Notes: generated by a model from the letters alone, not told the origin. A DNA stretch of 64,000 bases from an uncultured cyanobacterium (GCA_963744145.1 CAVUSO010000001.1:448001-512000), one strand, 5' to 3'; shown: positions 24,277 through 59,133, counted from the first letter of the stretch. Numbers and translations: made by a program.

Positions 24277-27018
24277 ATGGCTTCTCCTCTTGATTCCCAG
24301 TCTTCAGAATCTGCCAATCTGGCAGGATTTTCTCATCAGAATGAAAGTAATAACGCTCACCTAGACCAAAATAATTTCAACCGGGAAAACGATCCTCGGT
24401 TCAAAGCCAGTGGCGTTTATATTACAGTTCATGGACATTTCTATCAACCACCCAGAGAAAATCCTTATCTTGATGCAATTGAACGTCAGCCCAGTGCGGC
24501 TCCTTTTCATGACTGGAATGAACGGATTCATCATGAGTGTTATCGTCCCAATGCTTTTGCCCGGGTGTTCAATGACCAAGGTGAAATAGTCGGGATTGTA
24601 AATAATTATGAATATTTGAGTTTTAATATCGGTCCGACTCTGATGTCTTGGCTAGAACGTCACGATCGCGAAACTTATGACAGAATTTTGGCAGGAGATC
24701 GTTCCAGTGGCGATCGCCTCAATGGTCATGGTAATGCGATCGCTCAGGTTTATAATCATACCATCATGCCTCTGGCCAATGAGCGCGATAAATATACTCA
24801 AATTCGCTGGGGAGTGGCAGACTTTCGCTCCCGTTTTGGTCGGGAACCAGAAGGAATGTGGTTAGCAGAAACGGCTGTAGATTATGCCACTCTAGCCGTA
24901 TTAATTAAGGAAGGGATTAAGTTTATTATCCTGGCACCCTCTCAAGCCCAACGCTGTAGAACTCGATCTCATCTAGAAGTGACTCAATGGCACGAAGTTG
25001 GTGGTGGTCAAATTGATCCAACTCGTCCTTACCGCTGTTTTTTAAAGCCCAATTTGAACGTTTTAGGTGGTGGGGAAATCTTACCAGCTAGTAGTGACCC
25101 TCCTGCATCCCAGACTCCCTACATCGATATCTTTTTTTATGATGGACCGATATCAAGGGATATGGGCTTCAACGATGTGCTGCAAAGTTCCTATAATTTG
25201 AGCAGACGCTTAGGTTTGGCAATTCATGGAGATCATCGTCCTAGTCAACTCCTGTCTGTCGCTACTGATGGAGAAACCTTTGGACACCATAAAAATGGTA
25301 CAGAAAAATGTCTCGCTTATGCTTTTACCCAGGAATTTCCTCACCAGGGTTGGACGGTAACTAATTATGCCCATTATCTCAGCCTATGTCCACCCACTTG
25401 GGAAGTCGAACTAAAACCAGTCACAGCTTGGAGTTGTAGTCATGGAGTCGATCGCTGGCAAGATGATTGTGGTTGTGCTAGTGGTGGTGGTTGGCACCAA
25501 AAATGGCGTCGTCCCTTACGTGATGCCCTAAATTGGTTGCGCGATCGGTTGATTTTGGTGTATGAAGACTTCGGGCAACGCTGTTTTCACGATCCTTGGG
25601 CTGCCAGAGATGGGTATATTCAAGTGATTCGCGATCGCCGACCTGAGCAGGTAGAGCATTTTTTCCAAGAGTATCAAAACCATGAACTCACCCCAGCCGA
25701 AAAAGTTGATGCTTTGCTTTTGCTAGAAATGCAGCGTCATGCGCTCTTGATGTTCACCAGTTGTGGGTGGTTTTTTGAAGAAATTTCTCGTCCCGAAGGA
25801 GTCCAAATTCTCCGTTATGCAGCCCATGCTTTGGAATTAGCTAGAGAGCTTGCTGGGGTTGATTTAGAAGCAGAATTTATCAAACTGCTAGCTCTAGCTC
25901 CGAGTAATCTAGACTCTTTCAAAACTGGGGATGAAGTATATCGACAAATGGTGGTGACTGCTCAGATTAATTTCCTCCAAGTAGCAGCTCACTACGCCAT
26001 TAGTTCTCTGTTTACTAGCTACACAGAAATTTACCGCGTCTATTGTTATGAAGTCCAGCAATTAGATTACCAATTACAACGAATGGGATCTTTAACTTTA
26101 GCCGTTGGTCAATTAAATCTGATTTCAGAAATTACGCGGGAAAAAAGACATTTTGTATTTGCTGTTCTCCATTTAGGAGGTTGGGATTTTCACTGTTGTA
26201 TTAAGCCCTTTGCTGGCGATATTACTTATGTAGAAATGAAAAAATATTTATTTTCTGCTCTGCAAGAAGCTAGTGCGGCTGCGGCGATTTTGAGGATGGT
26301 AAATTTGTTCGGAGACCAGTCTTTTAGTTTACGGGATTTGTTTGCCGAAGAACGTCATCGAATTATGCGTTTGCTTAGTGGTGAAACCTTGACTCGATTA
26401 GATCAATTATATACCCAGGTTTATCGAGATAATTATGGAGTAATCATGGCATTCCATCGCGATGAATTACCAGTACCACAAGAGTTACAAGTAGCTGTAG
26501 AAGTAGCTCTCCAACATCGCTGTCTTACTACAGTCCGCACCTTAGCCCAGGAAATTAATGATGGTGGTTTAGGTTTGAGTCAGATCGGTGAATTAGAAGC
26601 GATCGGGACGGAAGCTAAACATCTGCGCTGTCAATTAAATATTCCTGAAGCTAAACAAATTCTAGCCGAGCTAATTGTGCGATCGCTTGATGCTTTGCTG
26701 CATCGTAGCACTGCGGCTACTTTCACGGCTAATTTTCACCAGATCGAACGGATGATTAGCATTGGTAATCAATTAAATCTCGCGCTAATTTTAGATCGAG
26801 CCCAAGAACTTTATTGGTATTATTTGACTGAGAAAATTTGGCCTTTATTATGCCAAAATCATGGTAAATCTTGGTTGGAAGTTAATCATTCTCCCTTAGG
26901 GCAATTAGCTCCTAAGTTATGGACTTATGATGAATTACGTCTGCTTTTGCAATTAGGTAAGCAACTGAGTGTCCAGGTCAATCAATATCTCGAAAAATTA
27001 ACAGAAGAAAACATCTAA
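24277..27018 (+). CDS. Glycoside hydrolase family 57 / DUF3536 protein
   Basis: HGHFYQPPRENP, GMWLAETA, ATDGETFGHH, WSCSHGVDRW and FTSCGWFF motifs. Confidence 0.92.
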   Translation: MASPLDSQSSESANLAGFSHQNESNNAHLDQNNFNRENDPRFKASGVYITVHGHFYQPPRENPYLDAIERQPSAAPFHDWNERIHHECYRPNAFARVFNDQGEIVGIVNNYEYLSFNIGPTLMSWLERHDRETYDRILAGDRSSGDRLNGHGNAIAQVYNHTIMPLANERDKYTQIRWGVADFRSRFGREPEGMWLAETAVDYATLAVLIKEGIKFIILAPSQAQRCRTRSHLEVTQWHEVGGGQIDPTRPYRCFLKPNLNVLGGGEILPASSDPPASQTPYIDIFFYDGPISRDMGFNDVLQSSYNLSRRLGLAIHGDHRPSQLLSVATDGETFGHHKNGTEKCLAYAFTQEFPHQGWTVTNYAHYLSLCPPTWEVELKPVTAWSCSHGVDRWQDDCGCASGGGWHQKWRRPLRDALNWLRDRLILVYEDFGQRCFHDPWAARDGYIQVIRDRRPEQVEHFFQEYQNHELTPAEKVDALLLLEMQRHALLMFTSCGWFFEEISRPEGVQILRYAAHALELARELAGVDLEAEFIKLLALAPSNLDSFKTGDEVYRQMVVTAQINFLQVAAHYAISSLFTSYTEIYRVYCYEVQQLDYQLQRMGSLTLAVGQLNLISEITREKRHFVFAVLHLGGWDFHCCIKPFAGDITYVEMKKYLFSALQEASAAAAILRMVNLFGDQSFSLRDLFAEERHRIMRLLSGETLTRLDQLYTQVYRDNYGVIMAFHRDELPVPQELQVAVEVALQHRCLTTVRTLAQEINDGGLGLSQIGELEAIGTEAKHLRCQLNIPEAKQILAELIVRSLDALLHRSTAATFTANFHQIERMISIGNQLNLALILDRAQELYWYYLTEKIWPLLCQNHGKSWLEVNHSPLGQLAPKLWTYDELRLLLQLGKQLSVQVNQYLEKLTEENI

Positions 27019-27056: not shown

Positions 27057-27692
27057 TTAACTATTCATGGGATCAAAAATGATTTCTTGATGGGAGAATC
27101 TGTGGATATTGCTACTGCGGCTTTGCCCATTTTCAGCGATCGATTCAGCTGGGATAAAACTCAATTCTAAATCTAATCTCATTTCTGCGTGTTTCCACTC
27201 TTTACCAGGTTCAAGAAATTCCACTTGGGGAAAACCTAAACGACTGGGTTGAATTAAATCAGTAGTTTCACTACAAGCAGATTGCAGTTCTTCTTTGAGT
27301 TCACGAATTAAAGAGCCAACTTGACGAGGTTCGCGACAGATGAGATTAAGATCAGATTGAATGACGGCAGCATCAGGTAAAACATAATTGGGAGATTGCC
27401 AAGTTAAGCAATCGAGTTGGATCGGTCGGTCTTCAGAACGGATTTTAAATCCAATGATTGGTAATAAGCGGAGAGTACCGTAAGTCCATCCCCCATTAGG
27501 TTGAATTGCTCTACCTTTCGTGCCATCGATTAAACATTTAACATCGTAAGAAATTCTCGTCACCGACCACAGAAGAATTGACAACAACTCTTCAAGTAAA
27601 AAAGTCTGTCGCCAAAATTTGTGGCTAGGTAGCTTAATTAATGTGTCACTGGTGAGGAAAGAAGTCTGGGTAATCCCTGTAGATTCGGCCAT
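27057..27692 (-). CDS. Hypothetical protein with two KGK-like segments
   Basis: AIQPNGGWTYGTLRL and FLEPGKEWKHAEMRLDLELSFIP resemble the cyanobacterial KGK motif. Confidence 0.5.
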   Translation of the reverse strand: MAESTGITQTSFLTSDTLIKLPSHKFWRQTFLLEELLSILLWSVTRISYDVKCLIDGTKGRAIQPNGGWTYGTLRLLPIIGFKIRSEDRPIQLDCLTWQSPNYVLPDAAVIQSDLNLICREPRQVGSLIRELKEELQSACSETTDLIQPSRLGFPQVEFLEPGKEWKHAEMRLDLELSFIPAESIAENGQSRSSNIHRFSHQEIIFDPMNS

Positions 27693-27753
27693 TGGTAAAA
27701 CTAATAGTGTTTATCCTCTAAGATATCTCTGAAATGGAGATTTAATCAAGTTT

Positions 27754-27843
27754 TTTTGTGGGACAGACATCTTGTCTGTCTAATTTTGTGGGACAGACAT
27801 CTTGTCTGTCTAATTTTGTGGGACAGACATCTTGTCTGTCTAA
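27754..27843. repeat. 3 x 30-bp perfect tandem repeat of a palindromic REP-like unit
   Basis: Unit TTTTGTGGGACAGACATCTTGTCTGTCTAA with internal inverted repeat GACAGACA/TGTCTGTC; no spacers. Confidence 0.95.
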
Positions 27844-28469
27844 TCTCGACACCAGATATATTCAGGGACAAAGCCCCCCTGATGTCCATGTTGCCAACCA
27901 TACCAGTCGCAGGTCAGATCATCATATTTGTTTTTATATTCATTAAAAAAACGAATTCGTTCTAGACGCAACTCCAAAAACTGCTCCTGACGGTATTCTT
28001 GCAGCCAGGAGCGTCGATCTCCGATGGGTTCGGTGAGAGATTTCCTCATCAAAAAAATCACGCCTTTAGCCGCATATTTATAAGCCATTTTCACAAATAA
28101 GTGAATAATCGATTTTCGGCTTTTTTTACCTGGAACCAGATATTGATAGCAAGGTGGATAGCTGATGACCCAATCAAAACCTCCCGTGGCGTATTCGAGC
28201 CATTGCCAAGATGCTTCCAGGGTCATATCGAAATGAAAGTCTGAGCATTGGTGGGGATCAATATCATTTGTAAAAACGTAGATTTGGTTAGAAAAATCTT
28301 GGATCACTTTAGCGATCGCATTATTACCACTAGCCGGATCTAAAATCACATCCCCTAATTCCAAAGGTAATCTGGGCAACAGTTCTGCCGTCGCCCATTC
28401 CGGACTGGGATAAGAATTGAACCATCGATAGGGCTGGCGCAGGTGTAATTGTTGGATTAATTGTGTCAT
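27840..28469 (-). CDS. Small phage-type DNA amino-methyltransferase-like protein with an altered catalytic motif
   Basis: SYPSPEWAT (YPTP-like), ILDPASG (motif I), NDID, and DWVISYPPC where NPPY/F is expected. Confidence 0.65.
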   Translation of the reverse strand: MTQLIQQLHLRQPYRWFNSYPSPEWATAELLPRLPLELGDVILDPASGNNAIAKVIQDFSNQIYVFTNDIDPHQCSDFHFDMTLEASWQWLEYATGGFDWVISYPPCYQYLVPGKKSRKSIIHLFVKMAYKYAAKGVIFLMRKSLTEPIGDRRSWLQEYRQEQFLELRLERIRFFNEYKNKYDDLTCDWYGWQHGHQGGFVPEYIWCRD

Positions 28470-28619
28470 AAATTTTTGTCTGCTTGAGAAAATATATGTT
28501 AACCGAATTAGTTTATGACCCCTAGGGAGGGGGTCACTTCCCTCTACCAGTATCGACCGACATATTTAAAAATCAAGCTGGAGTGAATCGGGAGTTTTTT
28601 TTCCGGATTTGCGTCAAAA

Positions 28620-28886
28620 ATGTTGAACAATATAAAGAGGGTGCATTGCGTCATGATTACAGGTCTGCTTTTAGAGAGTCTTACCCCTCCGCCTGCCCTA
28701 ATTCAGCTAGCCCCTAACCCTACTCAGCTTACAGCTCCAGGGTTACTTCTGGCCAAGCAATGTAAGGAAGTCAGTCGGTGGTATGCCTGGACACAATGCG
28801 GAACAAGCACATGTTGCAAGCTATACATTGCATGCTCGGACGGAACGGTAGTTACCCAATCAGTAGAAGCCTCCAACTGCAGTTAG
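28620..28886 (+). CDS. Small putative secreted cysteine-rich peptide
   Basis: Basic/hydrophobic N-terminus, Pro-rich linker, and a C-terminal 42 aa with six Cys. Confidence 0.55.
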   Translation: MLNNIKRVHCVMITGLLLESLTPPPALIQLAPNPTQLTAPGLLLAKQCKEVSRWYAWTQCGTSTCCKLYIACSDGTVVTQSVEASNCS

Positions 28887-28948
28887 AGGAACATCTACGC
28901 CAAGCTACCATCAAACTGATATCATCAGTAATACTGCTGGTAATTTTT

Positions 28949-29422
28949 ATGCCCAAAGATCAATCGCCCCAAACTCGGCTGACTGCTATATTGCAGGAAC
29001 AGCAGAGATTAGTGCTTGAACTAAAAGATGCCTCTCCCGGAAGGCAACTGCAAATTCAAGCTGAAATTGTCGCGCTCACCGAGGAGCAGTCAAAATTACT
29101 CCAGGAGGCTGGGCAAGTTACCTGTTTTATCTTTTCGAGTTCTAGTACCAGAGGAACTGGTTGGATTGAGGAAGAGCGTAACTATGATGGTGCGATTCGA
29201 CAATATCGTTATGGTTTCTATCGCAACGGTAAAAGTAATCGTCGCTATCTATCAAAGTTCCTTGTCCCTGATGTGCAACGGATGATTGCTGCCAAAGCTT
29301 CACCAGATGCCATTATAGAATTCCTAGATAAAGCAAAAATGCGGGATACCGCCACAACTTCTTTAGCTGGAGCTAATCTTTCTAAGCGTGATTCTAGAAA
29401 AGAGATTATTCGCGGAGTGTGA
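28949..29422 (+). CDS. Hypothetical protein (N-terminal coiled coil, basic C-terminal domain)
   Basis: Probable start ATG 28949 (MPKDQ...), which avoids overlap with 28620-28886. Contains GWIEE...YRYGFYRNGKSNRRYL. Confidence 0.6.
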   Translation: MPKDQSPQTRLTAILQEQQRLVLELKDASPGRQLQIQAEIVALTEEQSKLLQEAGQVTCFIFSSSSTRGTGWIEEERNYDGAIRQYRYGFYRNGKSNRRYLSKFLVPDVQRMIAAKASPDAIIEFLDKAKMRDTATTSLAGANLSKRDSRKEIIRGV

Positions 29423-29732: not shown

Positions 29733-31034
29733 TTACCTCACCTTTTGTCGAAAATTACGAGCTTTTTCAATACATTTACGAACAGATTGTTTTGATAGCT
29801 GTGATGAGTGTAGCTTCTCTTGTTGTTCACATCTACGTTGTAACTCTTGAAGCAATGGTGTTAGTTTTATTGGAGGAGGTGTTAGTTTTATTGGAGGACT
29901 TGAGTCATTAATGAAAATGGGAATTGCCTCATGAATATGAGCAATAAGTAACCAAGCCATTACAACTCTATCAGGTTTTTTACCCCAATCATCAAACAAG
30001 GGTTTATAAAGATGATAGTCAAGCCAATCAATTATTTGAGGATCTTTAAAAGAAACTGAATGAGTATTTAGAAAGTATTGCAAGTCTTTGAATAATAATT
30101 CCTCAATTGAATTTATTCGCTCACTCCAACGATCATCGGGTATCTTATAAGTTTCTTGGAAAGCCTCTATCTTTTCACCAAGAGATAAACCTGCTATTGG
30201 CTTAAGTTGTCCTAACTTTCCTGAGTAACAATGCTTACTAAGCAAAATTTCCAGAGAAGTCTGTTTTCCCAATCCAGGCTCCCGTTCCCAGTAAGGCATA
30301 AAAATATCCTCTACTCTGCGCCGAGTATCCTGAGTATTACGAGTAAGAGGGTCTTGTCCTTTTTTAATTCTCTGGTTACAAAAAAGACAATTTGGGACTA
30401 AGTTATATGGATGGCAGGCCAGATGTGGATATTTACTTTTAGGAAGATAATGATCTATATCTACATTTTCTATTTGACCGATCGGATTGATATCACACGC
30501 AGGACAGATAGACAGATCCTTATTTTCATCTTTGAATGCAGTCAAAAATTCTTTTGCTCCAAAGTAAGAAGGATTATTTCCTGAAAAAATATAAAGGGGA
30601 AAGCCAACATTTTTCTGCCTGGGTGTAGGGGTTTGTCGAAAAACTTCTTCATAAAAATTAATTAAGAACTTTTTGGCTGCTTTCTGCCAGGGTTCTCTGA
30701 TTTCGACAGGTTTAAATTCACTAATATTTTGCTTCAGTAGCCTGAATACTTCATAAGCTAGCTGTTTAAACCATTTTCGTTTCTTTGTACTAGAAGTAGG
30801 ATCTGTTGCAATTTCTTGGAGCAGTTTGAGCCTACCGTCAGGTGCTTGCCACACCCACTTAGCAATCTTTTCCCCTCTTCCTCGAAATCTAGGACATCGA
30901 TTGAGACGATTAGCACAGTCAGCTTGGTCTAGAGTCTGTCTAGAAACTGCATAAAATAACAGCCAAATCTGCAAAACTACCACATCTGTGAGCCGCTTAA
31001 GGGTTAGCTCTGGAAGACAAACTTTATGAATCAT
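29733..31034 (-). CDS. HNH endonuclease (PtuB-like zinc/HNH motif)
   Basis: CPACD...DIDHYLPKSKYPHLACHPYNLVPNCLFCNQRIK. Probable start ATG 31034 overlaps the ATPase TGA (ATGA). Confidence 0.85.
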   Translation of the reverse strand: MIHKVCLPELTLKRLTDVVVLQIWLLFYAVSRQTLDQADCANRLNRCPRFRGRGEKIAKWVWQAPDGRLKLLQEIATDPTSSTKKRKWFKQLAYEVFRLLKQNISEFKPVEIREPWQKAAKKFLINFYEEVFRQTPTPRQKNVGFPLYIFSGNNPSYFGAKEFLTAFKDENKDLSICPACDINPIGQIENVDIDHYLPKSKYPHLACHPYNLVPNCLFCNQRIKKGQDPLTRNTQDTRRRVEDIFMPYWEREPGLGKQTSLEILLSKHCYSGKLGQLKPIAGLSLGEKIEAFQETYKIPDDRWSERINSIEELLFKDLQYFLNTHSVSFKDPQIIDWLDYHLYKPLFDDWGKKPDRVVMAWLLIAHIHEAIPIFINDSSPPIKLTPPPIKLTPLLQELQRRCEQQEKLHSSQLSKQSVRKCIEKARNFRQKVR

Positions 31035-32602
31035 TCTGGCTCTATTTCTAGTAATTCTCGACGGATTCGGTAACTCCAATAGCCCTGACCAACTACGGAG
31101 AGAAGATTGTCAAGCACTTGCCGTCGTTCGTCAAGGTTGACAATAGGTTCTGATAGTATGCGTTGAATATACGCAACACTATGTTGTCCGGCAGGGTGAG
31201 GTGCAGCGAAGACATGAACCATCACATCGCTCGGATCGGCAGCAAAGGTTTTGAAAGGGGGGCTGATAGCACGTTTAGTGTAATTAGAATTACGCTCTAG
31301 TATACGTATGTTCTCTTCCAAAACATCTGTTAAGGTGATGCTGGAATGGGTAGTAATCAAAACATGGCTCTGTCTTCCCTCCAGAGTTTTATCTAGTAAA
31401 GAAACAATTTGACGTTTCCAAAAGTCGTTAAAGTGAACCTCTGGTTCATCCAGTAAAATTAAAGCTTCAGTTTTACCTAAGAGGGTAAAAAGGCACATCC
31501 GACCCAAAAAACTACGCTCACCATCACTTAGCCAATCGAGCAAATGTAAGGGTGGAGTTTCCTGTTCTTCACTTTCAGGATGAGCGGAAACTGAACGTTC
31601 TAGGAAAATATTGACTTCTCTCAACACAGATTGACCGTTGTCATCCACCTTGCCTAATTGAGCTAACTCTTTGAAAAGCTGTAAACCACTGGAAAATTCT
31701 TTGATAATTGCTTGAGCAACAGAGTTTTCTGAATTTGTTAGGTCAAATACTAGCAAGTAATCGCTTCCCAGGCAAAGGTGACGAGTTGCGATTGACGCCA
31801 AACGCTTTACCTGTTCTCGATCTGTGAGGCTGGCAGTGGCTTCGGTCATGCGGAACTTGAGAGAGAAACCAGCGATCGCCCTAATCTTCGCGCCTTCTAA
31901 CACATCTCCTAAGCGACGGCGATCGCACTCTTCTGCTAAATCTGTAAGTAATCCACAGAGAGTGACCAGAGAAATTTGATTAGCCTCGATCAGCAAACAT
32001 CGACTATCTGTTTCTGGATAGGAATTTTCTAAGCTTTCTGAATGAGGTGGTCTACCAGGTAGTTCTCGAATAGCCCGTTCTAGGAGGGATAACTCTTGGA
32101 TAACCTCTGAGTCACTGTTGTCGAGAGGTTTCTTTTTATCTAGGTTTTTCCAAGCGGTTTCGCTACCCGTAGTGAAAGCAACCACCATTTCTGGTAACAA
32201 ACTGTGGCTAAATTGAACTGGTTGTTCCTGAAGTATTTCATTATCCGTCTGAATCTCCCAGGCATTTACATCTCCTAAGAGGGCAAATTGTTCAACATCA
32301 GAATCCTCTGACTCTTCTGATTGTGGAATGTTCGATAACTTTACTCTGCGTTTTTGGTTGCCCTCTCCTAACTCATATTCTAGTTCAAAACCATAATCGA
32401 CAGGATTGTAACTCTCTAAAGTTCGTATTATATCAAACAGTGCTATTAGTACCGTTGACTTTCCAGTACCGTTGACACCTACCAGAAAATCAAGACTGTA
32501 GGAAGAAGCATGAGTAAGGATATGTTCTGTTTTAGGACTGAAGTTAATCTCTAAGTCGCGCAGAACTCGATACTTTTCTAGGTAGAGCCTCTGTAACTTC
32601 AT
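31031..32602 (-). CDS. ABC/AAA ATPase, restriction-system-associated / PtuA-like (C-terminal part of the 1198-aa ORF)
   Basis: MKLQRLYLEKYRVLRDLEINF start with GGAG upstream; Walker A GVNGTGKST, signature LSDGE, Walker B LILLDEPEVHFN, H-loop ITTHS. Confidence 0.88.
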   Translation of the reverse strand: MKLQRLYLEKYRVLRDLEINFSPKTEHILTHASSYSLDFLVGVNGTGKSTVLIALFDIIRTLESYNPVDYGFELEYELGEGNQKRRVKLSNIPQSEESEDSDVEQFALLGDVNAWEIQTDNEILQEQPVQFSHSLLPEMVVAFTTGSETAWKNLDKKKPLDNSDSEVIQELSLLERAIRELPGRPPHSESLENSYPETDSRCLLIEANQISLVTLCGLLTDLAEECDRRRLGDVLEGAKIRAIAGFSLKFRMTEATASLTDREQVKRLASIATRHLCLGSDYLLVFDLTNSENSVAQAIIKEFSSGLQLFKELAQLGKVDDNGQSVLREVNIFLERSVSAHPESEEQETPPLHLLDWLSDGERSFLGRMCLFTLLGKTEALILLDEPEVHFNDFWKRQIVSLLDKTLEGRQSHVLITTHSSITLTDVLEENIRILERNSNYTKRAISPPFKTFAADPSDVMVHVFAAPHPAGQHSVAYIQRILSEPIVNLDERRQVLDNLLSVVGQGYWSYRIRRELLEIEPE

Positions 32603-34627
32603 CTGCTCTTCTCCCCTAAATTTGAACCACCTGAGTCGAACTGCCATAGAATCTCGCTCCGTGACGCGACGGTAGAAGAAGATAGGATCGTTTGTCTTTG
32701 GATCTGCAATAGTCACAGGTACAATGACTCCCATACGTTCTAAGAGGTCAATGGTCTGGCGAGTAGCATCTGCTACATCCTCAGTATTAGCAGCATTCAA
32801 GTCCTCCAAGGTGAAGTGTGCTGCTGTTTCATAATTATCTCTCTCATTGTCAGTAATTTGCTCAGTTTTTTCACGTACTTTATTCCAGATTTTGGTTTGT
32901 TCTGGATTCAGCTTTTCTAGTAATTTGAATTCCGGTTCAAAAATTGGAGAAGGTAGTTTCTGAGTTGCAACAGGAGGTAATTCCAGACGACCAAAGAGGC
33001 TATCAATCCGTTGAGCTAGTAGCTGCTGGTTGCGGTGGATTCTGGCTAGGATCGTGGAAGGAGATTGAAGAGAGCTTGATTCGATCTGAGTTCCGACATA
33101 GCGTTCTGGACGTAAATCATAGGCTTGATTTTGGATGGTAGTGCTTGGAACAGCTACCCCTAGCAATCTGGGCTTGTCTATCCCTATGGTTTGGTGATGA
33201 TTGGGAAAAGCGATCGCCACTGCACTAACTGAACATGAAAGTAATGGTATTACTGGATTAATTTCTTGTTCTGATCCTTCTTTTGGTAATTGTTCTGAAT
33301 CAATATCTTGTTCTGTCTCCTCTTCTGCTGATTGGCCCTCATTAGTAGAGGTTTGCTCAGTCTCTAGGGGAATCTGGACAGTAATTCGTTTCTCTGAGGA
33401 AGTTGCTGCCAATTCCACCATTAAGAAACGAGACCTTTGACCAGTCTGAGGGTCTGGAAGCATAAATTTAATGTTTGTTAGGCTACTAGCTATGCCCTGA
33501 CAAATTATTCCCATTTGACTATTGCTGGGGCTTGTAATCCATTTGACCCCAATTTGCGGATTGGTGTCGTCATTAGGAAATCGCTCATCAAATTCAGAGT
33601 TATACTTCGCCCATACCTGTTCTACAAAAGGCAGGTCGCTATGTAGAGAAGGATCTTGTGTCAGATCGCGACCGCGACCAGTTGGATAGCCATCCTGTTC
33701 AACCTGGAAGAACCAACTTAGATGTCCTTCAACAGGGTTACTTTTGCTAAACAGCAGTAGATTGGTTTGAAGAGGGCTGTAGGGTTGAAAGGCATCTCTG
33801 GGCAGAGCGATTACTGCTTCCAGTTTATTTCCATCTACCAACTGAGTTCGCAAATCCTGATCAGCCTTACTGTTACTAAATAGCAACCCTGATGGCACTA
33901 GAAGCGCCGCTTTTCCATCTGGGGCTAGTTTTTGCAATGCCAAGGCGGTTAGTACCGTTTCGCTGCGACTACTGATTTTCTTTTTAAAGATTCTTGCTGC
34001 CAGTTCTATATCAATTTTTTCGCCAAAGGGAAGATTCATCAGAATCCGTTCAAAAGTTTTGAAAGCAAAAGCTTCTTCTCCCAAAACTTTGAGAGCGTTA
34101 CCATTCTCAATTTGAGCAGAGGGAATTTTATGAAGCCGGAGATTTGCTGTTGCTAACCACGCCCACTCAGGGGAAATGTCGATCCCAAAAGTCTGCCCAG
34201 GCTGATTGGGATCTGTAGCTTTACGATACACAAGCAAACCACCACTGCCACAAGTAAAGTCTGCCATGCTATGGATTGATTCAACTTGGGCAAGTTCTAG
34301 CATGAATTTGGCAATATACCGGGGAGTGGGATAGCGTCCACCGGGAAGCATAGTAGGGAGACGAAAAAGTATGTGGCGATCGAACAGCACAGCTAACCCA
34401 CCTACTTGATTAGCTGCTATCCTCAACTGCTCCTTGATAATTTTAATATTTTCTTTGTTTAGGTAGTCAGGAGGTAATCTAGGCATTGCTTCATCTTTTG
34501 GTAGTTCCAGTCTGCTTTCTGCCAAAAGAAGTCTAGCGATATGCTCAATAATAGTTAAGTCATCCGCAATCCCAGCACTGCGGAAAGTTGACCAAACTTG
34601 ATTAAGCCAATCGCGAACTGTTTCCAT
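32599..34627 (-). CDS. Second, divergent HsdM-like N6-methyltransferase-fold protein (N-terminal part of the 1198-aa ORF)
   Basis: GRYPTPRYI, DFTCGSGGLL (motif I), ILMNLPFG (motif IV, NPPF changed to NLPF), LVPSGLLFS, LPRDAFQPY, YDLRPERY, plus an extra C-terminal domain. In frame with the ATPase as sequenced. Confidence 0.8.
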
Positions 34628-34630
34628 GCC

Positions 34631-35929
34631 TTACAATTCTCCTCGAAAAGCCCGTTCTAAAATAGATTGCTCAAGCATATCAAGCGATTTAGCATCTTGT
34701 TCCAACATTTTTAGCACTGCTTCAGCAGCATACTGAATATTGTCAAGATATGCAACGGCTAGGCGTTGTTGCTGTATTGGTGGTTTCGGTACTGGAATTT
34801 CTACAACATTCTTAGGATATATGTGTGTTTGCCCCCGCTTATCTGCAAAGGCAATTCCTGTTCTCCTAGAAAGAATCTCTTGATGACCTTGTTCAGACCA
34901 AAGATAATAGTAGAGCCATTTGCCTAATAATTCTTCCTCATCTTTAGAGCGCAAAATCATTATTTGTGTATCAACTGTCCAGAAATCTTCACACTCTTTC
35001 ACATAACTAACACGCCCAAGAGTTCCTTCGGCAATGTTTGCCATCAGAACATCTCCAGGTTTTAAATATCTATCTTGAGGCAGTTTTTGCACTTGTTCTT
35101 CTTTCATATAGGAAGGATTATTGAATCGCAAATAGTGAGGATAAACGTGCTTGGTTTTGAAAACTCTAACGTCGGAATCACCTTCACCACTTGCCCGACC
35201 ATTAAAGGCTGTAGCAACTTCTGATAGAGGTACAATATCAATTACTGATTCAAGTTTTGTAAATACTTCATTTAGTGAGACAGTTAATAATCGCTCCGTA
35301 TCTCGTCGCACTTCGTCAAGCATACTGCGAGACTCTCTAATTTCAGTTAGTAGTGCTTCTATACGTGCAACAATTTGGTTTTGAACATTAAGAGAATAAG
35401 TAGTTTCCTTATAATGAGGAATAGGTACAGAAAGTTCGAGGAACTCTTTAACTTTCAGATTGCGTAATCCAGAAGTTGTAGCCTGTGCATATAAGTATAC
35501 GCTCCGTGCAGAGGATGAATGCAGATAATAAAGGAGATATTGGGGAATAACTGTTCCTTTAGAACGCAGCCTCAGCATAAAATTTGAAAACAAGTAGGTT
35601 CGACCATCATTAGGATCATCAAACAAGCAAGGCCACCCTACAAGCCTTGTGCTACCACTAGATTTATTAACTAAAATATCTCCATTTTTTAGTGAATATT
35701 TATCAATTATTTTTACATCTACAACTCTCATTTCTGCACTTTCAGACTTTAAAACGTAACCAGAGATTTCTGTAGATTTAATGGTAGGAAAAGCAATTGT
35801 ATAATTGTCCGCAGGTGTGCCCCAGATACCTGTCTGATGGCTAACTAAATCCGAGAGCTTAACCCATTTCCAATCTTTAGGCAAGTTCCATAGTTTTCTG
35901 ACCGATATTTCTGTGGCCATATTTACCAT
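34631..35929 (-). CDS. hsdS: Type I R-M specificity subunit
   Basis: LPKDWKWVKLSDL start, two TRDs (GDILV; GDVLM), helical spacers (QNQIVARIE; PPIQQQ) and C-terminal SILERAFRGEL. Confidence 0.95.
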   Translation of the reverse strand: MVNMATEISVRKLWNLPKDWKWVKLSDLVSHQTGIWGTPADNYTIAFPTIKSTEISGYVLKSESAEMRVVDVKIIDKYSLKNGDILVNKSSGSTRLVGWPCLFDDPNDGRTYLFSNFMLRLRSKGTVIPQYLLYYLHSSSARSVYLYAQATTSGLRNLKVKEFLELSVPIPHYKETTYSLNVQNQIVARIEALLTEIRESRSMLDEVRRDTERLLTVSLNEVFTKLESVIDIVPLSEVATAFNGRASGEGDSDVRVFKTKHVYPHYLRFNNPSYMKEEQVQKLPQDRYLKPGDVLMANIAEGTLGRVSYVKECEDFWTVDTQIMILRSKDEEELLGKWLYYYLWSEQGHQEILSRRTGIAFADKRGQTHIYPKNVVEIPVPKPPIQQQRLAVAYLDNIQYAAEAVLKMLEQDAKSLDMLEQSILERAFRGEL

Positions 35930-37452
35930 TAAGTCTCCTCCATATTACTAACAAGCTTATGAAGACGCTCTACAATAATTTGAAATTTTTGCTGATTTTC
36001 AAGAATTCTAGCAGTTAATTCCGAGGGATGTGGTAATTTTTCCTCTTCAGGACGATGAGGATTTCTAGCTGATAAATCATACCCCCGCTCGACCAGTATC
36101 TTTTCATCTACAAACCAACTTGTTTCAGTAAAATCTTTGTGAGATACTTTTCCTTGACAATATTTACGCCACTGCTGTACCACTTCCTTTGCTTGGTTAA
36201 AATGCTCATCAGAAATAGAATTTCCCTTACTAAATTTCTTCAAATTTTCAGGCAAAGGCATCTCGTAATAGAGAACTTCTTTGGTAGCACCTGATCGCTC
36301 AAAAAATAACAATGCAGTCTTCACATCCGAATAGGGAGCAAACGCACCAGGAGGCAGACTAACTACTAAAAATAGATTAAAATCATTGAGCAACATTTGC
36401 TTAACTGTAGCAAATGCACCACCTCGAAATAATGTTCCTTCCGGCACTACCATCCCACAACGAGCTTTATTTGATGGTTTCAGCTTTTTGATAATATGTT
36501 CAACCGCTAATAATTCTGTAGCGTTACTCTTAACAGGAAAATTCTGTTTAATTTGGGCGTTTTCTGTTCCACCAAAAGGAGGATTAGTTAGTACGATATC
36601 GAATCGCTCAGATACATTACGGACATTTTCTTCTAAGGTATTCTTCCGCCGAATATTTGGCACTAAAACCCCATGTAGTACCATATTCATTGTACCTAAG
36701 AGAGCAGGTAAAGCCTTTTTCTCCTGCCCAACAAAGGTTTTACGTTGAAGAATATGGCGGTCTTTAATAGTTTTCTCTTGCTTCTGCATCTGCTCATAAG
36801 CTTCCACCAAAAACCCACAGGAACCGCAGAAGGGGTCATAAACCGTTTCGCCAATTTGCGGGTCAATTACCTCCACTATAAATCGAATTATTGGACGAGG
36901 AGTATAAAACTCACCTGCCATTTTATTTTCATTTCCCAATCGCTTGAGCAAGTCTTCATAGACATGGGAAACTGTATGAATATCATCAGGATTTTTAAAA
37001 TCGATGCTATCAACAATCTCCAACACATCCTTGAGGTTATAAGGAGAATCACAAACAACTACATTCCGATCATTAAATATACCAGCAATCACTTCTCGTT
37101 CTGGGGAACCAGAGAGATTAGCAAGGTAGGGAATCAATTCCCCACGAATAAACCTCATCAGAGGCTCACCATCCCACTTTGGCGTAGCGCGACGACCATT
37201 TTCACCTACTTTTTTATCTAATGCTAAAAGTATCCAATTCGACCAAGAATAGTCACGATCAATTACTGGATTATGGCTTCCTCCTGCTAATTCAGCTTCC
37301 AATTCAAAGATTTTTTCTTGCTCGTCAAGAAACTTTAAAAACAACAACCAAGAGATATGTTCGACATACTCCATTATGCCGCCACAGTTATTGTCTCGAC
37401 GCAAAATTTCGCAAGCTCTCCAGATGTCGTTCGTTAATTGTTCTCGACTCAT
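35929..37452 (-). CDS. hsdM: Type I R-M DNA methyltransferase subunit
   Basis: IWRACEILRRD, GEFYTPR, YDPFCGSCGFL, intact NPPFGG and YDLSARNP motifs. Confidence 0.96.
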   Translation of the reverse strand: MSREQLTNDIWRACEILRRDNNCGGIMEYVEHISWLLFLKFLDEQEKIFELEAELAGGSHNPVIDRDYSWSNWILLALDKKVGENGRRATPKWDGEPLMRFIRGELIPYLANLSGSPEREVIAGIFNDRNVVVCDSPYNLKDVLEIVDSIDFKNPDDIHTVSHVYEDLLKRLGNENKMAGEFYTPRPIIRFIVEVIDPQIGETVYDPFCGSCGFLVEAYEQMQKQEKTIKDRHILQRKTFVGQEKKALPALLGTMNMVLHGVLVPNIRRKNTLEENVRNVSERFDIVLTNPPFGGTENAQIKQNFPVKSNATELLAVEHIIKKLKPSNKARCGMVVPEGTLFRGGAFATVKQMLLNDFNLFLVVSLPPGAFAPYSDVKTALLFFERSGATKEVLYYEMPLPENLKKFSKGNSISDEHFNQAKEVVQQWRKYCQGKVSHKDFTETSWFVDEKILVERGYDLSARNPHRPEEEKLPHPSELTARILENQQKFQIIVERLHKLVSNMEET

Positions 37453-37500
37453 GCAGTTTTCTCTCGGTATAGGCGCTGCTGCACCTCATTCAATGTTTGA

Positions 37501-37584
37501 CGCAAATTTTTGCTATTACCAAATCTTTCGCAAATTTTTGCTATTACCAAATCTTTCGCAAATTTTTGCTATTACCAAATCTTT
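37501..37584. repeat. 3 x 28-bp perfect direct repeat upstream of hsdM
   Basis: Unit CGCAAATTTTTGCTATTACCAAATCTTT at 37501, 37529 and 37557. Confidence 0.95.
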
Positions 37585-37774
37585 GTACTACCCCCTGTGC
37601 TTGTCCCTGATGTAGTTTTTATAATGATATGATGATCACGTCGAACTATCACCCAAATATTTGGTGATGTGGACGATTTTTGTACATATTTTGAGCGCTA
37701 TTGGCAAACACAAACCGAACTTCTGGCCATTTCTGGCGAGCAGCCCAGCAGTTCGCGGATGCTCTAAACTAGGG

Positions 37775-38594: not shown

Positions 38595-39196
38595 ATTTAG
38601 ACTTAATCGATCAGCTCAAAGATCAAATAGGTGTCAATGGCTTACCCTATCCGATTCCGATTCATCCCAATCTAGTACATTTGACCTTGGGATTATTTAT
38701 TGTTGCGATTAGCTTTGATATTGTGGGGGTGCTATTTCCCTTAGAAAAACCTGTTTTCAAATTTCTCGCCATTCCAGCAACGCGCTCAAATTTCTTTGAT
38801 GTCGGCTGGTACAATATGGTTGGAGCCGCTGTGATTACCTTCTTTACCGTGGCCGCAGGTTTTTATGAAATTATGTTGGCAGAACCAGCAGCAGATGTCA
38901 AAAGTGCCTGGGGATTGCTCGCAATGGAAACTATGCTCTGGCACGGAGTTGGTGGTGTACTCCTGTTATTCTTGATTGTGGTAATGACAGTGTGGAGAGG
39001 GTTTCAAAGATTTTTCTGGCGCAAAGACCGCGCTCAACAAGTAGACTGGAGTTACTTAATCGCTGGCTTAGGCATTTTTGCACTGATGTTTGTTCATGGT
39101 ACATTAGGGGCACAATTAGCCGCCGAATTTGGTGTACATATCAGTGCCGATCGCTTATTACGCATGGGTGAAGATCTGAATTTGCGATTGAAGTGA
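38591..39196 (+). CDS. DUF2231-type membrane protein
   Basis: GLPYPIPIHPNLVHLTLG motif; ATGA overlap with the previous gene. Confidence 0.85.
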   Translation: MNLDLIDQLKDQIGVNGLPYPIPIHPNLVHLTLGLFIVAISFDIVGVLFPLEKPVFKFLAIPATRSNFFDVGWYNMVGAAVITFFTVAAGFYEIMLAEPAADVKSAWGLLAMETMLWHGVGGVLLLFLIVVMTVWRGFQRFFWRKDRAQQVDWSYLIAGLGIFALMFVHGTLGAQLAAEFGVHISADRLLRMGEDLNLRLK

Positions 39197-40140
39197 TGGT
39201 AAGCATGAAAATTTCCACAATTTTAACTTTAGGCATCATTGCGATCGCCCTAGGGCTGATTAGTTTATGGATGGGGCAACAATCCTATTCCTGGTTTCCA
39301 CCCCAAGCTTCAGCCGAATCGGTTTTGGTTGATCAGTTATTTAGTTTCCTGGTTACTTTAGGAACATTCATTTTTTGCGGAGTAGTCGGTACAATCACTT
39401 ACTCATTGCTGTTCCATCGAGCGGGTAAATATGATGCTAGTGATGGTCCCCATATCGAAGGAAATCTTACTTTAGAAGTAGTTTGGACAGCAATTCCCAT
39501 CGTTTTAGTCATTTGGATTGCTGGCTATAGTTACCAAGTTTACGACCAAATGGGGATTCTCGGTGCAATGGAACATATTCATGCCCAACCCATCAGCTTG
39601 GATATACCCAGAGCCGAAGCAGCGACCATTGAAGATCGGGCGATCGCGAAAACTCTACCAACCGAACAAATAGATGTTTATGCGCGTCAGTGGTCCTGGG
39701 AATTCCGTTATCCCCAACAACACATCAGCACTACTGAATTGCATATCCCCAACCAGCGACGGATCAAACTAGCACTACATTCAGAAGATGTCCTACATGG
39801 ATTCTTCGTCCCAGCTTTCCGGATTAAGCAAGATCTAATTCCTGGTCGGGTAATTAACTTTGAATTTACACCGATCCAAACAGGTCGTTATCGCTTACGA
39901 GATTCAGAATACAGTGGCACCTATTTTGCGGCTATGGAAACAGATGTGGTCGTAGAATCGCCAGATGCCTATCAACAATGGCTAACCACAACCGCTAATC
40001 AAACCCCTGTTCCCGCATATAACCAAGCATTTGATGAATATCATCGTGTTCATACTCCGATTAGCACGGGTTGGCCAATCGTTGAACCTGCTCCTCCACC
40101 TGTGGTTAATTATCCCAGTTCTCCAGCAAATAACCTATGA
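39193..40140 (+). CDS. ctaC: Heme-copper oxidase subunit II, ARTO type (no CuA ligands)
   Basis: LEVVWTAIP, QWSW and DVLHGF motifs. The CuA CxExCGxxHxxM motif is replaced by DSEYSGTYFAAM. Confidence 0.92.
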   Translation: MMVSMKISTILTLGIIAIALGLISLWMGQQSYSWFPPQASAESVLVDQLFSFLVTLGTFIFCGVVGTITYSLLFHRAGKYDASDGPHIEGNLTLEVVWTAIPIVLVIWIAGYSYQVYDQMGILGAMEHIHAQPISLDIPRAEAATIEDRAIAKTLPTEQIDVYARQWSWEFRYPQQHISTTELHIPNQRRIKLALHSEDVLHGFFVPAFRIKQDLIPGRVINFEFTPIQTGRYRLRDSEYSGTYFAAMETDVVVESPDAYQQWLTTTANQTPVPAYNQAFDEYHRVHTPISTGWPIVEPAPPPVVNYPSSPANNL

Positions 40141-40654: not shown

Positions 40655-43600
40655 ATGCTAATACTACCAAATAACCAAGCAATTACATTTATATTAGAAA
40701 TCCTGGAGCTAAGAGCGCAAACTCAGTCTGAGCAGCGATGCTATACTTTTCTGAGCAATGGGGAAACTGAGTCAGGGAGTCTGACCTATAGAGAATTAGT
40801 GAGACAAGCTAGAGCGATCGCCTCCCAGCTCCAATCTGACCGAGGAGAACGAGCATTACTATTATACCATTCTGAATTAGAGTTTATCACAGCGTTTTTT
40901 GGCTGTTTATATGCGGGAGTGGTGGCAGTACCAGTATATCCTCCCAGACGTAATCAGAAATTGTCTCGTTTACTGTCAATCATCAATAATGCCCAAGCCA
41001 AGTTAGCATTGACGACAACAGCAATATTGCCCGACTTGGAGCAGAAGTCAGAAGCACAAACAGAATTAGCTCAGTTAAGGTTAATCGCTACAGATGCGAT
41101 CGCTGCTAATAGTGAAGAATTTGTATTGCCATCAGTCACACCAGAAACTTTGGCGTTTTTGCAATACACTTCGGGTTCTACGGGAACACCCAAAGGAGTG
41201 ATGGTAACACATGGCAATATCATTCATAATCAGCAGTTAATTCAGCAAGCTTTTGGTCATAGTGAGAAGACCATATTTGCGGGTTGGTTGCCATTGTTTC
41301 ATGATATGGGACTAATTGGTAATGTATTGCAACCAATGTATCTGGGAATTCCCTGTATTTTGATGCCCCCAGTAGCATTTCTGCAAAAGCCGATTCGTTG
41401 GTTGCAGATGATTTCTAAATATCAAGCGACTACCAGTGGTGGACCGAATTTCGCTTATGATTTATGTGTAAAAAAAATTCCAGACGAACAATTAGGGGAA
41501 CTAGACTTGAGGAGTTGGGATGTAGCTTTTAATGGAGCTGAACCAGTCCGAGCAGAAACCCTGGAGCAATTTAGTCAAAAATTTGCCGAATGTGGTTTTA
41601 ATTATAATGCTTTTTATCCTTGTTATGGCATGGCGGAGACAACGCTATTAACAACAGGTGGGGAGAAGACTCAAAGTCCAGTAGTTCAAAGAGTTAAGGC
41701 TGAGGAACTAGAGCAAAATTTGGTAGTAGATAGTGAGAGCGAAACAGCAGAAAGTCGTACATTTATAGGATGTGGTCATCCCTACCAAGACACCACAGTA
41801 GTAATAGTTAACCCGGAGTTATTAACTCCCTGTGCAGAAAGACAAGTCGGAGAAATTTGGGTATCAGGTGGGAGTGTAGCGGCGGGATATTGGCAGAGTC
41901 CTGAAGCAACAGCAGAAACATTTCAAGCAGCTCTAAGGGATAGCGGTGCAGGTCCTTTTCTTCGCACAGGAGACTTAGGGTTTTTCCTGAATGGAGAGTT
42001 GTTTGTGACAGGGAGAAGAAAAGATTTAATTATTATTAAAGGCAGAAATCATTATCCCCAAGACCTAGAAGTAACAGTAGAAAAAAGTCATCCTGCCCTC
42101 CGAGAGAATTGTAGTGCAGCATTTTCAGTAGAAAGGCAAGGAGAGGAAAAGCTGATAGTTGCTTGTGAGGTAGAAAGAACTGAACTCAGGAAACTGAAGC
42201 TAGATGAGATTGTCAGAGAAATCCAAATTGCAGTAGCCACAGAACATGAGTTAGAAGTTGATGGAGTTGTCTTGTTGAAGACCGGAAGTATTCCGAAAAC
42301 TTCGAGTGGAAAAATTCAACGTCGAGCTGGTCAATTAGGATTTTTAGAGAATAGTTTAGAGAGCGTAGGCAGGTGGGAAAAACCTCTCTCAAATGAACGG
42401 GAAATATATGTAGAACCTCTCTCAAATGAACGGGAAATATATGTAGCACCAAGGACTGGCAATGAAGAACTCATTGCTAACATTTTCGCCCAAGTCCTAG
42501 GGATAGAAGCAGTAGGAATTCATGACAACTTCTTTGGCTTGGGAGGACATTCTCTCTTAGCCACCCAATTAATTTCCCGACTCCAACTTACCTTTGGTGT
42601 AGAAATCCCCCTAAGAACAATCTTTGCATCTCCAACAGTAACTCAATTAGAGCAAACATTAACCCAGTTATGTAAGACGGGAAGTGGATTAAGTCTACCT
42701 CCAATTCAACCCAGAAAAGAGGGAGAAGAATTACCCCTATCATGGGCACAAGAACGACTGTGGTTCCTGAATCAACTAGAAGGGGCAAGTGCGACTTATA
42801 ACCTAGCAGGAGCGTTTCGGATCACTGGGGACTTAGATATTAATGCACTGCAACAAGCATTAGCCGAGATAGTCCGCTTCGTCACGAGGTACTACGCACA
42901 AGCTTCGCTACAGTAAATGGTCAACCAGTTCAGGTAATTGACTCAGCAGCCACCATCAACATGAATGTGGTGGATTTACCACAAATACCAGATCCAGAAC
43001 GCGAACAGCATTTACAGCAGTTAATACAACAAGAAGCAATTACCCCCTTTGACTTAGAAATAGCACCTTTAATCCGAGCCAGTTTGTTCCAGTTATCAGC
43101 CCGAGAATATGTGTTATTAATCACCATGCACCACATTGTTTCGGATGGTTGGTCAATCGGAGTATTCAGCTCGGAACTATCGGTTTTATATCAAGCTTTT
43201 AGTAGAGGAGAAGTATCACCCTTACCAGCATTAGCGATTCAGTATGCCGACTTTACCTGGTGGCAAAGAGAATGGTTGAGTGGTCGAAAGTTGGAAAATC
43301 AACTTAATTATTGGAACCAGCAACTTATGGGTGCTAATCCTATACTGGAATTACCTACAGATTATCTACGCCCTCCAGTTCAGACATTTTCTGGTGCTAA
43401 CCAATCTTTGCTGCTCAATCAGGAGCTAATAACAGCGATCAAAACCTTGTCTTATCAGCAAGGAGTGACCTTATTTATGATCTTATTAGCGGCATTCCAG
43501 GTATTACTGTATCGTTATAGTGGGCAAGAAGATATTATTGTTGGTTTTCCCGTTGCTGGTCGTAATCGGGCTGAGGTGGAGAACATGATTGGATTTTTCA

Positions 43601-56768: not shown

Positions 56769-56855
56769 TCTTTTGGAGTGATATCCATATTTTTCGCATA
56801 CTTCATTTCACTACGCTTTACTCCTTTATCCTACGATTTTTCGCGATCTGATGCT

Positions 56856-58526: not shown

Positions 58527-59133
58527 TGTCAATGTTTCCCTTGATGCTGCACCTAGTCAGACCCATGAAACCACCACACATACTCATGATGCAGCGGGCA
58601 ATAGTATGTTCGGTTTCATTGTGTTTCTATTGTCTGAAAGCGTCATTTTCCTCAGCTTTTTTACTGGATACATTGTTTATAAAACAACTGTTCCAGACTG
58701 GTTACCTCCTGGTGTCACAGGATTAGAAGTCTCTGGACCGGCTGTAAATACAGTGGTGCTTGTTTCTAGTAGTTTTGTAATCTATGTGGCTGAACGCTAC
58801 CTCCATCGCCAAAATCTCTGGGGATTTCGAGCATTTTGGCTACTGACTATGGTAATGGGTAGCTATTTCCTCTATGGACAAGCAGTAGAATGGCGCAGTC
58901 TGGCTTTTGGGTTTACAGATGGGGTGTTTGGTGGTACATTCTATCTCCTGACTGGGTTTCATGGATTGCACGTTTTGACCGGGATTCTGTTGCAATTAAT
59001 TATGCTAGTGCGATCGCTAATTCCTGGTAACTACGATCGCGGTGAATTTGGTGTATTTGCCACCTCTTTATTCTGGCATTTTGTTGATGTCATTTGGATT
59101 ATTTTGTTTGTCCTGATCTATGTCTGGCAATAA
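58513..59133 (+). CDS. ctaE: Heme-copper oxidase subunit III (ARTO)
   Basis: FLLSESVIF, TGFHGLHV and FWHFVDVIW motifs. Confidence 0.95.
   Translation: MNPTNVNVSLDAAPSQTHETTTHTHDAAGNSMFGFIVFLLSESVIFLSFFTGYIVYKTTVPDWLPPGVTGLEVSGPAVNTVVLVSSSFVIYVAERYLHRQNLWGFRAFWLLTMVMGSYFLYGQAVEWRSLAFGFTDGVFGGTFYLLTGFHGLHVLTGILLQLIMLVRSLIPGNYDRGEFGVFATSLFWHFVDVIWIILFVLIYVWQ

Follow-up and report, generated by a model that had tools for sequence, protein, structure and literature searches.

The locus described here raises the question of what a type I methyltransferase is doing in one operon with a second HsdM-like protein, an ABC ATPase and an HNH nuclease when the restriction subunit HsdR is missing. It lies in a 64,000-nucleotide stretch of DNA from an uncultured cyanobacterium (GCA_963744145.1, CAVUSO010000001.1:448001-512000), hereafter the window, whose minus strand is filled from 29733 to 37452 by four long open reading frames (ORFs). 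HsdM serves as the methylation-state sensor within type I restriction-modification (R-M) enzymes. Septu-type pairs of an ATPase (PtuA) and a nuclease (PtuB) are widespread, and the aiming of such a pair at foreign DNA is known only with a retron partner. Here the obligatory partner of the pair is instead a paralogue of HsdM; its gene directly follows that of the specificity subunit, and it is called M' below. We put at about 0.45 the probability of our reading that the locus is what decay has left of a rare operon spread by horizontal transfer, hsdR-hsdM-hsdS-M'-ptuA-ptuB(HNH), in which M' and the PtuAB-like pair would act as a second restriction arm.

All genes of the operon lie on the minus strand. 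The first intact one, hsdM (35929..37452), encodes a type I N6-adenine (m6A) methyltransferase subunit of 507 amino acids (aa) with the motif NPPF (Pfam N6_Mtase 7.5e-60 and HsdM_N 2e-12; PADLOC MTase_I 3.7e-136), and shares 46-81% identity with hsdM from related loci. Through a TAATG overlap it runs into hsdS (34631..35929), whose 432-aa specificity subunit has two target recognition domains (TRDs), visible as two Methylase_S stretches in Pfam and matched by PADLOC Specificity_I at 4.3e-36. M' (32599..34627; Pfam N6_Mtase 2.4e-29 over residues 96-322) follows after a gap of 3 nt, which is also the spacing in most related loci, and is 675 aa long once an extra base at 32650 is dropped. The PtuA-like ABC ATPase (31031..32602, 523 aa) comes next and overlaps, through ATGA, the gene of a 433-aa PtuB-like HNH nuclease (29733..31034), which starts at the ATG at 31034 rather than at the TTG at 31079. 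A first-pass annotation, made from the sequence alone, had recognized this tight minus-strand operon with its TAATG, 3-nt and ATGA junctions, the canonical NPPF hsdM and two-TRD hsdS, the ATPase motifs GVNGTGKST, LSDGE, DEPEVHFN and THS, the HNH nuclease, and a second HsdM-fold protein with NLPF and an extra C-terminal domain; gene calls, Pfam, PADLOC, Foldseek and AlphaFold all agree with it, the extra domain being a winged helix. Among the window's ORFs of at least 150 aa there is no HsdR, helicase or reverse transcriptase, in line with its statement that the window lacks them.

In the assembly as given, M' and the ATPase form one ORF of 1198 aa (34627..31031), with the ATPase running from Met676 on. 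The in-frame fusion hinges on a single extra base at position 32650, one T near that point. With that base removed, M' closes with the conserved tail ...YRRVTERDLWQ... and has a TGA that overlaps the ATG of the ATPase. A database protein of 675 aa (P0001) is 100% identical to the first 660 residues and ends ...YRRVTERDLWQFDSGGSNLGEKSR, a frame that the window reaches only if the T near 32650 is dropped; the other 29 close homologues of M' (658-717 aa) use the non-fused frame, and all of them except the truncated P0017 carry the YRR.T..D.W tail. A public contig from a DNA run (X1) has one letter left out at 32650, at a depth of 6.18 of 6.18 and with 0 other differences over 1484 nt, and is not fully independent evidence, since X1 is possibly the sample behind this assembly. 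A contig from an RNA library of a relative that is 95-99% alike (X2) also lacks the base, at a depth of 3.7 of 3.7. M' and ptuA are separate in 19/19 genome loci having both gene ends, with an overlap of 4 nt where coordinates were checked (e.g. L019, L020, L021, L030), and the longest of the best 150 representatives of the M' family is at most 887 aa. Because the contigs lack the base and the genes are separate in all relatives, the true arrangement appears to be five genes, with M' at 34627..32599, and the fusion most likely reflects a single wrong base in the assembly, or else a very recent mutation. The junction had first been described as either in frame or ATGA, and of these the overlapping separate genes stand.

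The missing HsdR can be explained from related loci. An hsdR gene lies directly 5' of hsdM in 18 of 24 informative loci, a count made up of the genome loci with informative upstream sequence (16/21), genome G228, metagenome locus L052 and the window itself; the loci without it are the window, L020, L023, L026, L029 and L031. These upstream genes are on the same strand as hsdM and encode proteins of 880-913 aa with ResIII, EcoEI_R_C and HSDR_N domains (in L039 the contig end cuts the gene and leaves the C-terminal 341 aa), and the HsdR of L019 scores 670 bits against NCBIfam NF046051, EcoAI/FtnUII subunit R, for which the cut-off is 550. An HsdM with N6_Mtase, HsdM_N and NPPF and a two-TRD HsdS are likewise what an EcoAI-type enzyme carries, and judged by these domains the first three genes, hsdR-hsdM-hsdS, are an ordinary EcoAI-type (type IB) R-M system, of whose HsdR only the last ~31 codons are left in the window. 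This remnant (37453..37615, minus strand) was located by aligning residues 854-884 of the L019 HsdR to 37544..37452 (61% identity, E 7.9e-6); the same protein also aligns to G000:C1:485455-485565, which is window 37455-37565. A translation, ...GQAQGVVQRFGNSKNLR..., is seen further up in another frame, and the upper bound of 37615 is a reading of the sequence. The stop of the remnant overlaps the ATG of hsdM. Inside it, just upstream of hsdM, a perfect 28-bp tandem repeat in three copies (37501-37584) reiterates codons for ...RFGNSKNLR... in shifting frames.

Such 3' remnants of hsdR abut the start of hsdM in three of the six HsdR-less loci, covering HsdR residues 854-884 in the window, 821-884 in L020 and 705-882 in L026. 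In a quick maximum-likelihood tree of M' with midpoint root, the HsdR-less rows are spread over three places, each with its own support, namely the window with L025 and L028 (SH-aLRT 98), L020 with L026, and a Coleofasciculus clade (100), so that hsdR appears from the tree to have been lost at least three times in the operon family. In the window its absence is, on the evidence of the remnant, decay by deletion down to the last ~31 codons and not native design. The first-pass annotation had spoken of an HsdR-less module and had named as the finding that would tell against it that homologous loci nearly always include hsdR; with hsdR present in 18/24 loci and remnants in the window, L020 and L026, that description has to be given up, and the five-gene order, whose recurrence without hsdR it had proposed to survey, does recur, commonly with hsdR in front. 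'HsdR-less' cassettes and fusions seen in a single assembly may stem from decay or from a single-base error. The closest other HsdR in the window's genome is 43% identical, and the HsdM next to it shares only 34% identity with that of the window, which makes cross-complementation by it unlikely. A 913-aa ORF at 24277-27018 was considered as the missing HsdR and rejected, being a GH57/DUF3536 protein. All 16 HsdR proteins of the operon family that were read (L019:4564-7218 and 15 others) have a beta-sandwich resembling CarboxypepD_reg (PF13620) at aa ~605-690, after the helicase and before EcoEI_R_C, and the paralogous EcoAI-like HsdR of the window's genome aligns on either side of this insert and not across it.

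A search with aligned M' homologues, in contigs from one genome per species, brought up 25 loci, with hosts in Cyanobacteria, Chloroflexota (including Herpetosiphon plasmid pHAU02), Binatia and Bacillota and in one metagenome-assembled genome labelled Enterobacteriaceae. A metagenome scan with a subclade of M' that lacks the motif IV Asn gave 80 loci, of which L050-L053 and the partial L054, L057 and L104 belong to the M' family; the remaining 73 were ordinary HsdM genes caught by the generic motif and were dropped. Among the 401 genomes of a phylum sample, G228 was the only other match. The order hsdM-hsdS-M'-ptuA-HNH on one strand holds wherever sequence extends in the 25 genome loci, the 7 metagenome loci and G228, and the six-gene order including hsdR is intact for example in L032, on a Herpetosiphon plasmid, and in the Stigonema locus L019, and is seen also in G228 and L052. 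All five genes are present in 15/25 genome loci; contig ends cut L022, L031, L033, L039 and L040, and L021, L029, L034, L036 and L043 are rearranged or eroded. M' was not found outside the hsdS/ptuA context among these loci. Across loci, identity to the window declines in step for HsdM, M', PtuA and the HNH protein, and therefore the operon seems to have been inherited as a unit; that M', ATPase and HNH belong with the hsdM-hsdS core, as first proposed, is supported by an order kept across four phyla. With a profile of the M'-specific C-terminal part, 187 cluster representatives among 1.84 billion were found at E <=0.001, 159 of them scoring 1e-10 or better, and by this measure M' is a small but real family.

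Decay is common in these operons and takes several forms. In L021 (3124-5830) a deletion takes out hsdS and joins hsdM to M', and in L031 (7249-8773) hsdM is split. The 3' genes are also affected: in G228 (L130:5960-6952) ptuA is split by an insertion sequence (IS) with a DDE_Tnp_4 transposase while hsdR is intact, in L034 (10867-12816) ptuA is deleted, which has left an N-terminal portion of M' fused to a C-terminal portion of the HNH protein, and in L036 ptuA is fragmented. Conversely, L029 keeps hsdS-M'-ptuA-HNH and has neither hsdM nor hsdR within 22 kb, and the window and four further HsdR-less loci keep the 3' genes. Other genes have entered some of the operons. The space separating hsdR from hsdM is occupied by AbiEi in L037 (5377-6219), by AbiEi and AbiEii in L039 (1081-2790) and by the gene of a pentapeptide-repeat protein in L042 (6642-7229). 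Large pentapeptide-repeat proteins are also encoded upstream in L020 (3700-5196) and L026 (4462-6654), the latter with an Mrr_cat nuclease domain.

The AlphaFold model of M' (mean pLDDT 76.8) begins with a helical part, after which come a Rossmann methyltransferase core (aa 96-322, with NLPF as motif IV), a beta-rich insert at aa ~348-494 of partly low confidence, a long HsdM-like C-terminal helix at aa 523-547 and a winged helix at aa ~568-654. Its best Foldseek matches are HsdM chains (5ybb_A at 1.6e-16, 3ufb, 7eew_A, 2okc_A and EcoKI 2y7c_B), and both PacII M1M2S chains (7vs4, 7vru) are among the matches. The region around YDLRPERY, with the long helix, aligns to positions 433-487 of the 491 of PADLOC MTase_I (E 4.9e-4), a region that we presume, from HsdM-HsdS structures, to be part of the surface with which HsdM packs on HsdS. 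The winged helix resembles those of Fur/PerR, ORC2, TFE and the kleisin winged helices on SMC heads (Z 6.2-7.8). A VIA-wide search with the C-terminal part of M' matched the winged helix alone and gave no match for the beta-rich insert, and no PADLOC model matched the N-terminus. The insert was considered as a possible TRD, but profile-profile comparison of the C-terminal part with HsdS gave nothing (probability 1%). HsdM and M' are 25-31% identical over ~200-260 residues, so the duplication is presumably old, and sequence and model together indicate that M' is an old HsdM paralogue that has kept the S-adenosylmethionine-binding motif and acquired two additions, the beta-rich insert and the winged helix at its C-terminus.

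Among the 30 closest homologues of M', motif I (D-F/L/I-x-C-G-S/T-G/A-G) is kept in 30/30 and motif IV reads NPPF in 24, NSPF in 3, and NLPF (the window), SPPF and NPSF in 1 each. At the NLPF codons the X1 contigs agree with the window, and therefore the change from Pro to Leu appears to be real in the window's strain. Counted over 118 full-length members (the 30 close ones and 88 of >=580 aa), motif IV is canonical, [NDS]PP[FYW], in 78; its first residue is lost in 20 (APPF, APSF, AAPF and similar), the middle position is changed in 11, the aromatic is lost in 7 and the motif is gapped in 2. An anchor residue is thus lost in 27/118, and motif I is kept almost throughout. M' proteins with APSF could be placed in context in L050 (hsdM-hsdS-M'-ptuA) and L051 (M'-ptuA-HNH), both in the same operon. 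In type I M subunits the mutation of NPPF to APPA abolishes methylation, according to the accessible text of Morgan et al. (2016). Since members lacking the Asn are kept in the operon, methylation would not be the sole conserved role of M', and to judge from these sequences that role cannot be methylation alone. The term 'pseudo-HsdM' used at first therefore does not suit the close clade, where NPPF prevails (24/30), and suits the part of the wider family that has lost the anchor.

The ATPase matches PADLOC PtuA (6.6e-36) and, over residues 1-484, NCBIfam TIGR04435 restrict_AAA_1 (2.6e-32), and its Walker A, signature, Walker B and H-loop are conserved in 20 aligned sequences and intact in the window. 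It also matches PADLOC PDC-M01A (1.5e-14) and AriA of PARIS (4.4e-14). The HNH protein matches PADLOC PDC-M01B (4.8e-15), PDC-M62B (1.3e-13) and PtuB (4.6e-7, over ~50 of its 433 residues), and its motif CxxC...DH...N...CN is conserved in 15 aligned sequences and intact in the window; it had no match in Pfam, NCBIfam or PDB sequences. The middle insert of the ATPase and the N- and C-terminal parts of the HNH protein were matched by no PADLOC model. Elsewhere in the same genome (G000:C1, near 4.53 Mb; L001 4436-4819), a second ABC-ATPase-like stretch, 27% identical to PtuA residues 375-505, adjoins a different type I hsdR.

In having an ABC ATPase gene followed by an overlapping HNH gene, the operon resembles Septu and the type I-A retrons, and like the latter it has an obligatory third partner gene directly upstream of the pair. 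The likeness is distant. The best solved sequence relative of the ATPase, PtuA 8ee4, is matched over the C-terminal half only (2.5e-10); the score against NCBIfam PtuA (NF041760, 6.7e-18) is 64.9 bits, with a cut-off of 500; the HNH protein, at 433 aa, has N- and C-terminal parts that match nothing; and the partner is an HsdM paralogue and not a reverse transcriptase. To judge from gene order, the pair also seems not to be a self-sufficient two-gene Septu, since it sits inside a type I operon, behind hsdS and M', in every locus read. PDC-M01, PDC-M62 and TIGR04435 also have a Septu-like ATPase and an HNH protein at the end of an hsd operon. Septu-like pairs within type I operons are already catalogued as untested candidates (PADLOC PDC-M01 and PDC-M62; TIGR04435), and the first-pass annotation's 'candidate new' cannot be kept for the ATPase/HNH pair as such. 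The PDC-M01 and PDC-M62 matches cover core motifs or part of a protein only and leave family-specific parts unmatched, the ATPase scores 112.3 bits against TIGR04435, for which the curated cut-off is 300, and the accessible descriptions make no mention of a dedicated paralogue of HsdM with its gene placed between hsdS and that of the ATPase.

Two further systems were compared. MADS (mad1-8) also combines an HsdM-like m6A methyltransferase and an HsdS-like subunit with separate ABC-type ATPase and nuclease modules, but its nucleases are Toprim/OLD-like and not HNH, its eight genes include kinases, it has no HsdR, and the operon's scores against the equivalogs are far below their cut-offs (MAD2 77.8 against 720 bits, MAD5 48.3 against 400 bits). 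PacII-type systems have two HsdM-fold genes, one hsdS and hsdR in a single locus, as far as the accessible text of Morgan et al. (2016) goes, and there M1 and M2 are 45-55% identical, M2 has NPPY and the order is M1-M2-S-R. In the operon described here M and M' are about 28% identical, NPPF is paired with NLPF or NPPF, the order is R-M-S-M', and M' has a beta-rich insert and a winged helix and is always followed by ptuAB. By these comparisons MADS and PacII-type systems fail as matches, and Septu type II/retron I-A is at most a distant one. Neither an hsdR-hsdM-hsdS-M'-ptuAB operon nor an M' with a winged-helix tail was found described in the literature, and a listing in the supplementary tables of Payne et al. 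(2024) is possible.

In the reading that we favour, M' may sit on the HsdS-defined recognition complex in the manner of HsdM, probe the target adenine and, by contact, hand an 'unmodified' signal to the PtuA ATPase and its HNH partner. The complete operon would then be two restriction arms, HsdR and PtuAB, reading one methylation mark, and the window, after the deletion of hsdR, would be left with a methyltransferase core and the M'-PtuAB arm. That M' couples the reading of methylation state to a PtuAB-like nuclease as a second restriction arm is the most likely interpretation of the gene content and order. Two observations lean towards it: L029 has hsdS-M'-ptuA-HNH without hsdM or hsdR, and five further loci, the window among them, have kept the 3' genes after losing hsdR. 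We hold as doubtful the stronger proposal that M' is an HsdM-derived methylation reader, non-methylating in part of the family, that HsdR and PtuAB are interchangeable arms on one HsdS, and that PtuAB replaced HsdR in loci like the window. If M' is such a reader, it offers one concrete way in which a Septu effector tells self from foreign DNA, and the HsdR-less derivatives would be natural type I-like R-M systems with PtuAB in the place of HsdR. If M' bridges HsdS and PtuAB, it provides a simple genetic handle on the coupling of R-M to a second effector, for which loci without hsdR, the locus without hsdM, loci with a catalytically dead M' and the locus with an IS in ptuA are natural controls.

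Several observations weigh against a second arm coupled through M'. The match of its long helix to the C-terminus of HsdM is weak, and those of its winged helix, with Z below 8, are of a generic kind. Septu in its canonical form needs no partner system, and type I operons often harbour unrelated systems, according to the accessible text of a preprint (Payne et al. 2024), so that tight synteny in a small family may reflect common descent only. As the 3' arm also decays, by IS insertion, deletion or fragmentation of ptuA, its persistence after the loss of hsdR is weak evidence for a working effector. The window copy lost its upstream region along with hsdR, and a promoter and terminator scan found no excess over shuffled sequence (16 promoter-like sites, with 19 expected).

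The last of these points lead to the first alternative, that the locus in the window is a silent or dying relic whose remaining genes no longer defend the cell and which is at most an orphan methyltransferase. The hsdR remnant with its 28-bp triplication, the NLPF of M' upheld by the X1 contigs, the existence of relatives at every stage of decay (L021, L031, L034, L036, L043, G228) and the distance to the nearest other HsdR of the genome and its HsdM are all consistent with it. Yet, leaving aside the base at 32650, none of the five remaining frames is broken, and the catalytic motifs of hsdM, the ATPase and the HNH protein are kept. Contigs that are 95-99% alike (X2, X3 and X6, from metatranscriptome libraries labelled permafrost) cover parts of the hsdM, hsdS, M', ptuA and HNH genes of a near relative, corresponding to window 30935-36777; this is at most a weak sign of transcription, since DNA may be present in such libraries, and gaps in the cover are uninformative. 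A relic is a possibility to which we give distinctly less credence than to a second arm.

The main rival as to function is a guard of the kind known from PrrC and PARIS. M' would here be an HsdM-like decoy or sensor in the methyltransferase complex that keeps PtuAB silent until a DNA mimic (Ocr, ArdA) or a peptide (Stp) hits the complex, whereupon PtuAB is freed and the infection aborted. PrrC is an ABC-ATPase-based effector inside a type I hsd operon, that of EcoprrI, and is thought to be controlled by the R-M enzyme, which, in the accessible accounts, holds it inactive until Stp of phage T4 inhibits the enzyme; in retron Eco7, as far as the accessible text goes, PtuAB is kept in check by its partner, the complex of reverse transcriptase and msDNA. 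The match of the ATPase to AriA also fits a guard, and the loss of the motif IV anchor in 27/118 members fits a sensor or scaffold. PrrC differs, however, in being one protein that has its own anticodon-nuclease domain and binds the R-M enzyme directly, while here a two-protein ATPase/HNH pair comes with an HsdM-like third protein. L029 has nothing left to guard within its 22 kb, and the canonical catalytic motif in 78/118 members of the M' family would be needless in a pure decoy. A guard is, in our view, unlikely, and somewhat less so than the third alternative.

That alternative, two unrelated functions in which M' is the second methyltransferase subunit of a PacII-type M1M2S complex and the ATPase/HNH pair an independent Septu-like system captured once at the 3' end and co-inherited, can appeal to the M1M2S complexes of established type I systems that have two M genes (Morgan et al. 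2016, accessible text), to the PacII chains among the fold matches of M', to the fact that independent systems commonly sit inside type I operons (Payne et al. 2024, whose accessible text also describes embedded defence genes for BREX and DISARM loci) and to the AbiEi/AbiEii and pentapeptide genes inserted in some operons of the family, but it is improbable in view of the low identity of M and M' (25-31%, against 45-55% for M1 and M2), their common NPPF-type motif in place of NPPF plus NPPY, the order R-M-S-M', the persistence of Asn-less M' members in the operon, the extra domains of M' that HsdM lacks, and the presence of ptuA downstream of every M' where sequence extends.

The rest of the window consists of housekeeping genes, among them those for GH57, DUF2231, cytochrome oxidase, nonribosomal peptide synthetase (NRPS) and transketolase proteins. 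The interval that separates the GH57 gene from the operon (27057-29422) holds three ORFs of 209-214 aa with no Pfam or NCBIfam match. The gene for cytochrome oxidase subunit II (39193-40140) lies apart from those for subunits I and III (56778-59133), and between them, at 40655-53722, is an NRPS cluster of ~13 kb with a major facilitator superfamily transporter, in which three genes carry AMP-binding, PP-binding and Condensation domains.

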